From sequence record LR597660: a stretch of 64,000 nucleotides of DNA, one strand, 5' to 3'. The notes beneath the pieces were generated by a model that saw nothing but the letters and a program-made list of their open reading frames with translations, did not search any database and had not been told where the DNA came from. Made by a program: the position numbers and the translations under genes. This stretch comes from Escherichia phage T4_ev151. Shown here piece after piece: positions 1 through 17,871 of the stretch (position 1 is its first letter; each line of letters begins with the position of its first letter).

Positions 1-1889
1 TACTTCATCATAAAATCTAGTTCAGGATACTTGATAATTTTATCAATATATCGTTGAGCTGAACTTGAATAACCTACATACTTATCATAATCTACATCAT
101 CAAAAGCATCTACATATAAATCACGCAAAGCTTCAAAAATACATTGGCACTGACCGAGTTCTTTTACCTTTTTCTGTAAAAGCGGACGAATAACATAAAA
201 TTCATTAATGCCAATAAGATTAGCCATACGAATCAAAATATTCATAGATGGATGACAAAGTGATGTAGTACCATCCATAGAGAAAATATCAGAACGATGC
301 ATATACGCTACATAACCAGTAATTTCATCTGCTTCTGACGTAAGTGTAAATAATTCCTCTTTTTCCCAACGCCCATCTTTAATTTCAAACTTAAATGCTG
401 TAGCAGCTTTAGGACGAGGAGCTTTACTTTTAACTACCTTTGGAATATAGCTTTTAACTAAAGCTTCAATTTCTGACAAATAATGAATGTTAACTTCATC
501 ACTTTCAAACATTGCCATAATATCAGGTAGTAAATCAATCTGCGATTCTACTTCCGGATTAATAAACAGAAGACGCTCATTGTGATGAATATTTAAAGTG
601 TTATTAAATTCACTATCATCTAGCGCATGTGCTAATCCACGGACAATATTAACACGATTTTTAATATTATCAATAACGATATTAATTTTTGTTGTATTAA
701 TACCAAACAGACGATAACTTGACGCAACGGCTGATGTTTCATGACTTTGCTTAATGCGCTTCAGTCGAGGGTCAAGATTTACTTCATACACAACTCCTGC
801 ATTACATAACTTACTGTCAGGTTCAAACATGCTCTGCATTTTCTTATATGACAGATTTTTAGTCGTGAATTTGACTGAATTACTAATCATATAATCTCGA
901 GCAGAATGCCCCATCTTCATCAATTCACGATATGTGTGACGAGGAGATGTAGATTCTTTAAATCGTTTTACATCTTCATTAAATGCTTTCTCACTAAACT
1001 CTTTAACTCGTTCAATAATATTTTTACGAGTGCGATCATCTAATGAAAGAGCTTCACGTGATGGAGCAATATCAAGTGAACCCATTGGAAACTTAATGTA
1101 ATTCACTTCATTGCGGATGCTTAGCCAGTTACGGTCTCTAATAACACCATCGATAGGATAAACAATACCGCCATAGATAGCATATAATCCACCACGATCA
1201 GGCCAGTATCTTTCTGGATTTACACCGTAATAGTCATCAAAATCTGGAAAATAATCAATTTCGCGGTCAAGACCATTAATGATAGCCAAATCTTTGAATG
1301 GTCGCATGATATAAGAAACTTCATAAGCAAAGTTTCTAAAGTCTTTTTCTTCAACTGGAACTACGATTTCAATACCAGTTTTATCATCTGGACCCATTTC
1401 TTTTACGAATGTAGGTTTAATTTGTGGACCATCGCCATCCATGTAAGCTACATAACCACGAATTTCACCTTTATGATACGAAGTAATACTAAATGTATCA
1501 GTATAACTAAACGGAGATTTAGAACCTAAACCAAATCCGCCAATGAAATCGTTAGATTCAGCCTTAGATGAACTGAAATATGAATTATACAGACCAGGAG
1601 AATTATCATCACCCTGAATATCAAAATCACTCATACCCGGACCAAAATCTCGGCAAACAAATCGTGGATCTAAACGTCTAGGAACTTGAATGATAAATTT
1701 TTCAGGATTTCCATTGAGAGCATGGGCATCAATCATGTTGGTAATCAATTCACGGACTACTGCGCGAATTTTGTTTGTATACAAATCAGATGACAGAATT
1801 TTAAATACTTTAGGAGATGCTGTGATGCTAAATGCTTTTGATTTAGAACCATTGCCAAGAATAGTTTCTTTTTCAGCGGTGATAATCAT
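1..1889 (-). CDS. rIIA: rIIA protein, N-terminal 629 codons (3' end lies beyond window start)
   Basis: ATG at 1889 preceded by GAGGAAA RBS; frame open to position 1 (hence absent from ORF track); N-term [20 protein letters not shown] with GHKL-ATPase-like ELITNMIDA motif; lies next to gene 39 as in T4. Confidence 0.8.
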
Positions 1890-14806: not shown

Positions 14807-15043
14807 TTAACCACCTATTTCTGTAGGCGTAAACATTGCAGCATTCTTAGTTTTCCAAGTTGCTGCATCGGAAACTACATCAGAATAAGCTGCTTTTTCT
14901 GACGGAAAGATTTGATAATGAGAATCTGCAATACGATGCTCGTTAGAATAGATTTCAAACGGAACAGAAACTTCCATACCTTTAACTTCTTTGCCTTCAC
15001 CTGCTGGATGAGTAAAGGTCTTGATGTTAACGAAACCACCCAT
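14807..15043 (-). CDS. soc: small outer capsid protein Soc
   Basis: 78 aa; GFVNIKTF and FPSEKAAYS motifs; late promoter upstream and terminator downstream. Confidence 0.7.
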   Translation of the reverse strand: MGGFVNIKTFTHPAGEGKEVKGMEVSVPFEIYSNEHRIADSHYQIFPSEKAAYSDVVSDAATWKTKNAAMFTPTEIGG

Positions 15044-15075
15044 AATAAACTCCTTTATTGTTTAATTACAGGTGT

Positions 15076-15083
15076 ATTTATAA
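15076..15083 (-). promoter_or_regulatory. late promoter TATAAATA upstream of soc
   Basis: plus-strand tatttata 33 nt upstream of soc ATG. Confidence 0.55.
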
Positions 15084-15224
15084 CTTACAATTTAGCGGCT
15101 TTCCAGAGTTGTTCAATAATCTCTTGGTCTATTTCTTTAGTTATTTCATTACGTAATAAAGCAGTAAGGGCTTTCGCCCTTTTCTTATTCAACTTTTTGA
15201 GTTGACGTTTATTTAAACGAGACA

Positions 15225-15743
15225 TTAATAACCTCGGTCCTGACGAGCAAAGTTCTCGGCATTTTTCAGATAATAAAGTTTAAAGATTTCTTCTGCTGTA
15301 AGACCAAGACCTTGGAACATGTTCAGAACGAAATGGAGAATATCAATCATTTCAAACTTAATTTCCAGTTGGTCTTGTGGAGACAAATCAGTAATCAGAG
15401 TTTCACGACGTTCACCATGCTGCGACTTCCAAGGTTTCCATACAGCAGATGCGTCTTTTTCACCATTACTCATACCACCAAGAGAAGTCAGAAGTTCACG
15501 GAATTCATCATCAATATAATCTTTCTGATTGCGCAGCCAATCAACAACTTCACCTGCAGTAGCCAAATCATCAGGATGACGGTTATATTCAGGTTTATCT
15601 TTAGCTAAACGAACCTGTAAAGATTTCTGCATATCAAGCATAACTTGCAGCGGGTCTTTTTCATCACCGAGAATATCCCAATATTCATTTTGAGCTTTAT
15701 CAGCGCCTTCAATCAGTTGTGAACATTCGTTAAAGTAAGCCAT
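15225..15743 (-). CDS. 56: dCTP pyrophosphatase (MazG-like)
   Basis: 171 aa from MAYFNECSQL; track ORF extends upstream with no RBS; position between soc and 61. Confidence 0.75.
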   Translation of the reverse strand: MAYFNECSQLIEGADKAQNEYWDILGDEKDPLQVMLDMQKSLQVRLAKDKPEYNRHPDDLATAGEVVDWLRNQKDYIDDEFRELLTSLGGMSNGEKDASAVWKPWKSQHGERRETLITDLSPQDQLEIKFEMIDILHFVLNMFQGLGLTAEEIFKLYYLKNAENFARQDRGY

Positions 15744-15777
15744 TATTTTTCCTTTCAATTCATGGGTTAGTAGATTA

Positions 15778-15803
15778 ATTATACAATAAATATATAAAGC
15801 AAT
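15778..15803 (-). promoter_or_regulatory. possible MotA-dependent middle promoter for gene 56
   Basis: minus-strand ATTGCTTTA MotA-box-like element upstream of TATAAT. Confidence 0.3.
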
Positions 15804-15814
15804 AAGGAGGACAT

Positions 15815-16015
15815 ATGGTACAAAAATTAATGGCACTTATTAATGCCATAAAAGGTAATAAGAAACGTATAGCTTTTACTATTTCTGCTATGATAGGAAT
15901 TTTACTCTGGAACTTTATTTTATCACCTGTTGCAATTGCACATGGTATTAATATTCCAGTAGTTACTCTTGATACATTCGTAGATTTAGCATTTGCTTTA
16001 GTTGGGTTAATTTAA
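15815..16015 (+). CDS. small hydrophobic membrane protein, plus strand
   Basis: 66 aa; AGGAGG RBS 5 nt before ATG; two predicted TM helices; convergent with gene 61. Confidence 0.4.
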   Translation: MVQKLMALINAIKGNKKRIAFTISAMIGILLWNFILSPVAIAHGINIPVVTLDTFVDLAFALVGLI

Positions 16016-17040
16016 ATCTTAGCATATTTAGATAACCGCATTTTAGCCATCAACCCCTGGGCAATATTATTTTTCATATATTCCATAATTTGTTCAGGGG
16101 TTGCACCTTCCTTTCTAATCATATCATTGACGTCTTTTGATTTCCAGGGAGATTTATCCCAAAACATAACCCTTTCTCCTGCATCAACTAATTTAGTCAT
16201 TCGTTTGATAGTGTCAGGGTGACGAGGTTCATTATCTAAGACCCACACACGCCTATCTTTAAATGGAACAACTTCTAGGTCTAATTGACCACCCGTAATA
16301 GCTATACCATTTTCAATAAAAAGTGAATCTATAGGTCCTTCTAGAACATATACATCGCCATCTTTAACTCGTTCGACTCCATATATTTTTGTTGCCTCAG
16401 GATAAGCTTTAATGGTGATATATTTTTGAGGAGCATCTTTCTTTAATGCACGTCCTTGAAAAGACTCAGCTTTTCCATTAGCATTATAAATTGGAATAAC
16501 AAGACGAGGCTCAGAAATTTCCTTTTTGTATGTTCCCGGTGCTATGCTATTAACTAATTTAGGCCATTCGGTTGTAAACCAAAGATATTTCCATTTATCC
16601 TTTGGAATACAACGAGCTTTTACATATTTTATAATTGGATGGTCTTCCGCCAGTTTATCTAATCTAACACATGACGGAAGAGATTTAATTATTTTCTTCT
16701 CAGGTTGTTTAGGAAGTTCTTTAGGTTTTTCTACTGGACGACTTTTACCTTTTTCTTTTCTTATTTCAAAGATATACTCACGATATAAATCGGGTTCAAA
16801 CTCCTTTAAATATATTCCGATTGGTGCATGATAGTTACAGTTATAACAATGAATATTTCCTTCATTATTATCACCATAATACCATCCACGAGCTTTATTC
16901 TGATCGGTTTTTGAATCTCCACAAACAGGGCATCTAAACCGCAATTTAAAAGTTGAACTATTATTTACTTGTGTGAATTTAGGTAAATGAGCTAATGCAC
17001 GATACGCAAACTCATTATCAATCCAAGGTATTGATGACAT
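16012..17040 (-). CDS. 61: DNA primase
   Basis: 342 aa; N-terminal zinc ribbon CPVCGDS...CYNC and Toprim-like core. Confidence 0.9.
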   Translation of the reverse strand: MSSIPWIDNEFAYRALAHLPKFTQVNNSSTFKLRFRCPVCGDSKTDQNKARGWYYGDNNEGNIHCYNCNYHAPIGIYLKEFEPDLYREYIFEIRKEKGKSRPVEKPKELPKQPEKKIIKSLPSCVRLDKLAEDHPIIKYVKARCIPKDKWKYLWFTTEWPKLVNSIAPGTYKKEISEPRLVIPIYNANGKAESFQGRALKKDAPQKYITIKAYPEATKIYGVERVKDGDVYVLEGPIDSLFIENGIAITGGQLDLEVVPFKDRRVWVLDNEPRHPDTIKRMTKLVDAGERVMFWDKSPWKSKDVNDMIRKEGATPEQIMEYMKNNIAQGLMAKMRLSKYAKI

Positions 17041-17044
17041 TTTT

Positions 17045-17209
17045 ACTCTTCTTTTTCTTTAGATTCCTCTTTCTTCTTTTTAGGAATCTGTTCAGGACCT
17101 TTATTTACTACAGCGCCCGACGTTGTTCCAGTAGAGATATTTTCAGGATTACCACCTGAATCTCCAGCTACCATATCTTCTTTAATAAATTCTTTATATG
17201 TTTTCATAT
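17045..17209 (-). CDS. small hypothetical protein (not in ORF track)
   Basis: my translation MKTYKEFIKEDMVAGDSGGNPENISTGTTSGAVVNKGPEQIPKKKKEESKEKEE. Confidence 0.3.
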
Positions 17210-17565
17210 TAACCTCTATTCATAAAAGCATTAAAAATTTGGTCATCAATAGATGGAATAGCAACCTTTTCGGCATCATTTAGCAAATCATTAATTTCAT
17301 CAGATAGCATAACACATGTGCCTTTATTTCCTGTAATTGTTACTGCACAATTACGAACGTTTTCTTTATTAAATTTTAGGTTAATATTTTCGTAATGAAA
17401 ATCCTTTAATGCTGAATATATTTTTAAAATAAAATTGTCTTTTACTACAATAAACCCAACCTCACTATTAAAACGTGGTTCATGGAAACTGTAATAAACC
17501 TTTTCATCTATAAAATCGTATGAAATTTTTTCCATTTTTAAATATGAAAATTCAGAACTATACAT
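17209..17565 (-). CDS. hypothetical protein (61.1/61.2 region)
   Basis: 118-aa ORF. Confidence 0.45.
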   Translation of the reverse strand: MYSSEFSYLKMEKISYDFIDEKVYYSFHEPRFNSEVGFIVVKDNFILKIYSALKDFHYENINLKFNKENVRNCAVTITGNKGTCVMLSDEINDLLNDAEKVAIPSIDDQIFNAFMNRG

Positions 17566-17577
17566 ACTAACCTCTAA

Positions 17578-17871
17578 TTACTCACCTACCACTTCAGCGA
17601 TGATATTTTTATTATTAAAGTTTTTATCGCAATACAGAACATAATTATACTGCATTACACCACCAGATTTAAGTTGTTTTTGCACTTCAGCTTTCATTTC
17701 AGGACGATCACGTTCAACGATATTCATAATATCCGCTTCAATTTGAATTTCAACTTCAGTCTGATCTGCAGTCATAGACCATTCGCACAAATCTTTGTCA
17801 TAACCCGCCATAGCAGGCTGAGCAGCGCAAGAAGATAAAGCAAAAATTGCAGCAAAGATAAATTTTTTCAT
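17578..17871 (-). CDS. sp: periplasmic Spackle-like protein
   Basis: 97 aa; cleavable signal peptide MKKFIFAAIFALSSCAAQPAMA; size and position as T4 sp. Confidence 0.6.
   Translation of the reverse strand: MKKFIFAAIFALSSCAAQPAMAGYDKDLCEWSMTADQTEVEIQIEADIMNIVERDRPEMKAEVQKQLKSGGVMQYNYVLYCDKNFNNKNIIAEVVGE

Follow-up and report, generated by a model that had tools for sequence, protein, structure and literature searches.

What occupies the interval between gene 56 and gene 61 in a T-even-type phage that lacks dam there? In the 64-kb stretch of DNA analyzed here (the window), gene 56 (dCTPase/dUTPase; 15225-15743, minus strand) and gene 61 (DNA primase; 16012-17040, minus strand) lie to the left and right of a small open reading frame (ORF) on the opposite strand. 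A preliminary description had placed this ORF "where T4 carries 69/dam". The locus therefore raises the questions of whether the small ORF is a gene, how it is related to dam, and what its product might do.

The window belongs to a Tequatrovirus (T4-like phage). A megablast search with positions 15200-16100 matched 733 phage records, the top ones all Tequatrovirus, and the closest were Escherichia phage wV7 and O157 typing phage 7 (99.1% identity over this segment). As a whole, the window corresponds approximately to positions 290-65,700 of wV7. Because its far end is only 90%-96% identical, we regard the phage as a mosaic relative of wV7 and not as wV7 itself.

Conservation of a small plus-strand ORF next to the primase gene

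The small ORF runs from 15815 to 16015 on the plus strand (66 codons plus a stop; product MVQKLMALINAIKGNKKRIAFTISAMIGILLWNFILSPVAIAHGINIPVVTLDTFVDLAFALVGLI) and was identified from the ORF list and from the annotation of relatives as a small membrane protein of PHROG 2024. A Shine-Dalgarno sequence, AAGGAGG (15804-15810, plus strand), can be read 4 nt before its ATG. At the other end, its stop codon and that of gene 61, on the minus strand, overlap by 4 nt in a TTAA palindrome (16012-16015), and the same overlap is found in T4, Mosigvirus, and Moonvirus. The preliminary description, which had reported a 66-aa hydrophobic ORF with a strong AGGAGG ribosome-binding site, convergent with gene 61 and the only coding potential in the interval, was accurate in these respects: there is no other credible ORF between genes 56 and 61, and we agree that this is a plausible gene for a small membrane protein. 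A listed 203-aa minus-strand ORF (15225-15836) was rejected as a separate gene, being merely an in-frame upstream extension of gene 56. The length of the small ORF is by itself not beyond chance in DNA of 34% G+C, in which many antisense ORFs of similar size are listed; hence, the case for a gene rests on conservation across genomes.

Using the peptide as a tblastn query, we found matches in 692 phage records, approximately 502 with a Tequatrovirus-type copy (at least 80% identity) and approximately 190 more distant. The small ORF adjoins the primase gene in nearly all of the records inspected, and the layout (a plus-strand ORF on the gene 56 side of the primase gene, its 3' end facing that of the primase gene) is the same in T4, T2, T6, Mosigvirus, Gaprivervirus, Moonvirus, and Jiaodavirus. 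Copies within Tequatrovirus are 88%-98% identical, whereas five Tevenvirinae genera share the position and orientation of the ORF at 25%-58% amino-acid identity, and (A)AGGAG(G) upstream of the ATG is kept in all lineages examined. The window's peptide matches the PHROG 2024 profile with E = 1.5e-31 (residues 2-66 against profile positions 1-65 of 65), and the syntenic Moonvirus and Jiaodavirus members, as well as a tandem paralog in Gaprivervirus, match it at 1e-24 to 1e-28. Equivalents are annotated as F412_gp242 in wV7 and as RB32ORF030w, described there as "similar to RB69ORF029w". These belong, together with RB69ORF029w itself and T2 CDS0175, to PHROG 2024 (also VOG1982), a family without an assigned function whose members have 63-66 aa and the same position and orientation. 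The window's ORF shows no material difference from them and is an ordinary member.

Beyond this family, a phmmer search of 1.84 billion representatives retrieved only the peptides of these phages, apart from three spurious hits, and an IMG/VR scan added only 8 further loci. The three hits, long repeat proteins (P0032, P0036, and P0037), were discarded as compositional or repeat artefacts on reading their sequences. The peptide had no match in Pfam (E ≤ 1), NCBIfam (E ≤ 10), or PADLOC.

We then compared the ORF codon by codon. Of the six frames, the sense frame is the one with the lowest pN/pS; between genera, pN is 0.30-0.40 against a pS of 0.57-0.81, at which synonymous sites are saturated. 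Twelve distinct Tequatrovirus sequences vary at 10, 3, and 13 sites in the first, second, and third codon position, respectively, and 8 of the 12 codons with amino-acid variation are I/V swaps. Between the window and T4 alone there are four non-synonymous and no synonymous changes, which are small numbers, and all four are conservative. In length, the genera differ by no more than one whole codon (65 versus 66 aa). In an alignment of eight sequences from five genera, M1, W32, N33, P38, G44, P48, and G64 are invariant, and the core W-N-[FYL]-x3-P-x4-[HQY]-G-x3-P is present in the window's ORF. Nor is the ORF disrupted where it is separated from the primase gene, by an HNH endonuclease in DK-13 and by a tandem paralog in UPEC01 and the extracted loci L014 and L015.

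Two variations on this layout were seen. In some Gapriverviruses (L009, 1701-1901, plus strand; L014; L015), the small ORF is followed, before the primase gene, by a tandem 66-aa paralog (PHROG 2024, 23% identity), which is frameshifted or truncated in DK-13, TH40, and L017. The T6 record (AP018814; L021, 1501-1503) has ATT in place of the ATG that is present in all other Tequatrovirus copies, and its next in-frame ATG is codon 6, which has no ribosome-binding site.

The T4 counterpart and the dam insert

T4 has the same 66-codon ORF (NC_000866, 17738-17938, plus strand) between dam and gene 61. It is 94% identical to that of the window, from which it differs by four substitutions (I9V, A25T, I27V, and I45V), and it keeps both AAGGAGG and the TTAA stop overlap with gene 61. 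The ORF is unannotated in the reference records AF158101.6 and NC_000866.4; the gene order in NC_000866 is 56, oriA, dam (16846-17625), a 309-bp "empty" gap, and gene 61, and the ORF fills this gap. Because T4 carries both, with dam between the ORF and gene 56, the small ORF is no substitute for dam, and its placement in the preliminary description has to be abandoned. The same description stated that T4 has additional genes here. This is so for dam, which does lie between genes 56 and 61, but not for the homing endonuclease gene 69, now segF, whose actual place in T4 is the interval from soc to gene 56. In the window, this interval lacks segF and has instead a 46-aa minus-strand ORF (15085-15225), which corresponds to the hypothetical protein F412_gp244 of wV7.

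The proposed absence of Dam from the gene 56-61 locus was borne out. A tblastn search found no Dam homologue in the 64-kb window (best E = 0.32) and none in the remaining 102 kb of wV7, whereas the T4 and T2 positive controls were found at 1e-175 or better. T4-type dam is an accessory insert of approximately 880 bp between the small ORF and gene 56, and T4-type Dam (at least 90% identity) occurs in only ~182 records as against ~502 with the Tequatrovirus-type ORF (~36%); the state without dam at this site is thus the commoner one in Tequatrovirus. The interval between the ATG codons of gene 56 and of the small ORF is 71 nt in the window and 952 nt in T4. The short interval of the window consists of the counterparts of the 56-proximal middle promoter of T4 and of the ORF-proximal ATAAATAT...AAGGAGG segment of T4, and comparison with T4 puts the approximate insertion site of the extra DNA of dam-bearing phages at 15784-15803.

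Other phages fill this site differently or leave it empty. The stretch from gene 56 to the small ORF is without dam in T6, pSs-1, teqskov, HMD-9, Mosigvirus, Gaprivervirus, and Moonvirus; at such dam-less sites, gene 56 mostly adjoins the ORF directly, but in Moonvirus CF1 two other small ORFs intervene. In T2, dam is accompanied by an additional 181-aa ORF, and Jiaodavirus has a homing endonuclease or other ORFs. Hence, the cassette for the T4 Dam protein (a GATC N6-adenine methyltransferase), which in T4 and T2 fills the interval but occurs neither in the window nor in the remainder of wV7, is an optional insert and no allele of the small ORF. The initial reading is in this sense reversed: it is dam that is movable, and the small ORF is the old, fixed neighbor beside the primase gene. 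The interval is an insertion hotspot for dam, for dam with a restriction-enzyme-like ORF, for homing endonucleases, and for other ORFs, and GATC methylation is therefore patchy among T-even phages.

The restriction-enzyme-like ORF of T2 (PV648363; 181 aa, PHROG 8706; 865-1410, minus strand, of the extracted locus L022) lies between dam and the small ORF. It is also present in many dam-bearing Tequatroviruses and is absent from the window and from T4. Its similarity to type II restriction enzymes is weak: Pfam DpnII matched at E = 0.0096, which does not reach the curated cut-off, and PADLOC REase_II at E = 1.1e-4. A sequence search of the PDB gave no match. This ORF and dam may be what remains of a GATC restriction-modification cassette.

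A viable T4 derivative bears on whether the small ORF is needed. In the CRISPR genome-reduced T4_583L (MZ375356; L031, 1480-1570), a 2-nt deletion in codon 22/23 shifts the frame of the ORF, a further 4-nt deletion lies between its ribosome-binding site and ATG, and most of dam is lost. T4_583L still forms plaques and has a burst size of 109 versus 120 for the wild type (PMC9825161). Judged from this genome, whose indels could in principle be sequencing errors, the small ORF appears to be dispensable in the laboratory.

Candidate late promoter and predicted membrane topology

In T4, early and middle transcripts all run counter-clockwise, which is the minus strand here, and only late transcripts use either strand (PMC2988020). 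Upstream of the plus-strand ORF, we found a candidate gp55-type late promoter, AATAAATA (15785-15792, plus strand), with the ATG starting 23 nt after the motif. It matches the late-promoter octamer at 7 of 8 positions and is not perfect, representing the A(-13) variant of TATAAATA; among the 50 listed T4 late sites, A(-13) is the commonest variant (9 sites; PMC2988020). Its ATAAATA core is kept 16-22 nt upstream of the ATG in 4 of the 5 genera, i.e., Tequatrovirus, Mosigvirus, Gaprivervirus, and Jiaodavirus, the upstream region of Moonvirus having only ATTAAATA. Within Tequatrovirus, dam-less and dam-bearing phages alike retain it despite their differing flanks.

ATAAATA is five-fold depleted in the window (8 copies versus 40.4 ± 6.5 expected), at positions 15075, 15786, 41948, 55797, 60114, 62652, 62665, and 63060. 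In six cases, an ATG-initiated ORF follows on the same strand at a distance of 14-32 nt, mostly with a recognizable Shine-Dalgarno sequence; these ORFs are soc, the small ORF, gene 49, a 70-aa ORF, and, twice, the lysozyme gene e. The small ORF thus resembles the T4 late genes in early regions (soc, gene 49, and e) in having a TATAAATA-type motif 14-32 nt before its ATG and a short leader, and soc, two genes away, is likewise set among early and middle genes. It differs from them in using the A(-13) variant and in having its motif on the opposite strand inside the spacer of a MotA-dependent middle promoter. The latter is the gene 56 promoter, the counterpart of T4 P(M)16.53, of which comparison with T4 (mot-box and -10 annotated in X01416) suggests a MotA box, TTGCTTTA, at 15795-15802 and a -10 hexamer, TATAAT, at 15778-15783, both on the minus strand; the plus-strand late motif falls within the 11-nt spacer between the two. 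A literature search returned no direct evidence for transcription, translation, or membrane location of the small ORF, and nothing on it in work on the RB69 and RB32 counterparts, on T4 ribosome profiling and small ORFs, or in T4 transcription-start maps.

A consensus scan also placed a terminator-like hairpin, ATGGCATTAATAAGTGCCAT followed by TAATTTTTGT, on the minus strand at 15820-15849, antisense to codons 2-12 of the ORF, as a possible end point for transcripts of gene 61. Minimum-energy and centroid folds both contain the hairpin, and its stem sequence is kept in T4. Mosigvirus lacks the hairpin, yet the peptide sequence is kept there. The 216-nt minus-strand fold as a whole is not unusually stable (z = -1.46), and an Rfam scan of 15000-17200 gave just one sub-threshold miRNA match. 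On the plus strand, there are no terminator-like sites for 2.5 kb downstream of the small ORF. In Jiaodavirus (Klebsiella phage KpV477; L029, 1960-1985), the small ORF and the primase gene are separated by a G+C-rich hairpin, AAGGGGCTTTGGCCCCT, which looks like a bidirectional terminator, in contrast to the 4-nt gene overlap of Tequatrovirus at the same point.

The product has a GRAVY of 1.26. All five of its lysines and arginines are within residues 4-18, its sole acidic residues are D53 and D57, and the C-terminus (...DLAFALVGLI) closes a segment that is free of K and R from residue 19 on. A 19-residue Kyte-Doolittle window reaches ~2.0 over residues 19-42. AlphaFold2, run on a 15-sequence alignment, predicted helices at 2-12, 16-42, and 52-63 and a loop at 43-51 (pLDDT 81). 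After the loop, the Moonvirus and Jiaodavirus proteins have just 12-14 residues, too short a segment for a membrane crossing, and we therefore favor a predicted topology with the N-terminus inside, one transmembrane helix, and the C-terminus outside. The motif W32-N33-x4-P38-x4-[H/Q/Y]43-G44-x3-P48, followed by an acidic residue at 53, would on this model cover the helix's outer end together with the loop. A Foldseek search of BFVD returned the family itself at significant scores and next, as its two best matches outside it, uncharacterised 63-aa phage proteins (E = 0.06 and 0.12, prob 1.00); further matches, including a "Holin" at E = 5.7, were noise, as was everything retrieved from the PDB. 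The BFVD match at rank 2 comes from a T4-like Enterobacter phage and is possibly a distant family member.

Alternative explanations and the possible role of the protein

We conclude that the small ORF is probably a genuine, conserved, dispensable late gene of T-even-type phages that encodes a 66-aa inner-membrane protein of PHROG 2024. On this account, gp55-RNA polymerase would transcribe the gene late from AATAAATA at 15785-15792, with a plus-strand start expected near 15798-15800, ~6-8 nt past AATAAATA/GATAAATA, and translation would start from AAGGAGG. Changing AATAAATA to AACAGATA would be expected to kill the late promoter while keeping the gene 56 promoter. The basic N-terminal amphipathic helix with its five K/R would remain cytoplasmic, a transmembrane helix of approximately residues 16-42 would follow, and a short tail, lysine- and arginine-free and with two Asp, would lie outside. 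Most likely, the conserved W32...P48 motif would dock the peptide onto a partner membrane or periplasmic protein. As to what this would achieve, no homology or fold search gave a match that lends the small ORF a function, and our guess was therefore drawn only from topology and timing: tentatively, and with the chances against it, the protein may be an accessory modulator of a late envelope process, e.g., lysis timing or envelope integrity.

Three other explanations have to be weighed against a late membrane-protein gene. The 4-nt overlap of the stop codons, the 2.5 kb of downstream plus strand without a terminator-like site, and the hairpin inside the ORF (15849-15830), which would leave gene 61 mRNA overlapping the ORF transcript by ~165-195 nt, are what one would expect if the locus acted mainly through RNA, a late plus-strand transcript antisense to the 3' end of gene 61 mRNA silencing primase late, with the peptide secondary. 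We consider this improbable: constraint at the protein level is clear, the 216-nt fold is unexceptional by its z score and has no Rfam match, Jiaodavirus interposes its hairpin between ORF and primase gene, and DK-13 and UPEC01 have another gene there and still an intact ORF. Given the Jiaodavirus hairpin and the intervening genes of other genera, an antisense effect on primase is not the conserved function, although such a late effect is possible as an addition to the role of the protein. A dual-purpose late switch, in which one gp55-driven RNA encodes a membrane micro-protein that tunes a late envelope event and, as antisense, helps to shut off primase as T-even replication passes from the origin- and primase-dependent to the recombination-dependent mode, is a combination to which we would give little credence. 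Its weaker form, in which a conserved and expressed T4 gene has simply been left out of the reference annotation, is probably true. It is more doubtful still that the ORF has no translated product and owes its conservation to the 3' UTR or terminator of gene 61, to the gene 56 promoters, or to a read-through extension of gp61; this we find extremely improbable. True, the minus-strand frame that continues gene 61 in phase has no further stop for 78 codons past that of the gene (15780-16011) and is open in both Tequatrovirus and Mosigvirus, the terminator-like hairpin lies inside the small ORF, and the T6 record lacks the ATG. But it is the sense frame that is most constrained by pN/pS, the hairpin is lost in Mosigvirus while the peptide persists, and the ribosome-binding site, ATG, length, and hydrophobic pattern are all kept across five genera at 25%-58% identity. 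The antisense frame has no start codon giving at least 30 aa, is poorly conserved, and contains a stop in Gaprivervirus, on which grounds we rejected a gp61 read-through extension; its openness is probably a by-product of the codon composition of the sense strand.

The remaining explanation is that the product is a holin or a pinholin-like lysis protein, as it is labelled in UniProt for phage OE5505 and in a Klebsiella phage KP1079 record. It is small, hydrophobic, and predicted to be late and to have at least one transmembrane domain, and class II/III holins and pinholins (S21 68 and T4 gp t) are also small or membrane-embedded phage proteins made late. However, these "Holin" and "putative holin" labels appear to be automatic: no holin family of Pfam or NCBIfam matches at permissive thresholds, the nearest folds outside the family are the uncharacterised 63-aa proteins and the BFVD "Holin" is noise, and the predicted single membrane helix is followed by a short hydrophobic tail instead of the charged cytoplasmic C-terminus typical of holins. 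Furthermore, wV7 already has a canonical T-type holin gene t and spanins elsewhere, and the T4 frameshift mutant lyses with a near-normal burst, which sets the dispensable ORF apart from gp t. That the product is itself a holin is thus unlikely, and we rate the whole lysis-protein explanation as very improbable.

The finding is an ordinary one in that the family is already catalogued. What is mildly new is that reference T4 omits a conserved gene that, as read from its sequence, bears every hallmark of a late gene. With the omission from AF158101 and NC_000866, studies restricted to annotated T4 genes miss a gene whose conservation extends to at least five Tevenvirinae genera; neither this gap nor the insertion hotspot changes the current understanding of T4 biology. 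By description, the small ORF product can also be compared to the superinfection exclusion proteins Imm and Sp of T4, which are likewise small, envelope-targeted accessory proteins of T-even phages. The sp gene is in the same gene block as the small ORF. Imm and Sp are early and encoded on the counter-clockwise strand, in contrast to the small ORF, which is on the strand used only by late transcripts.
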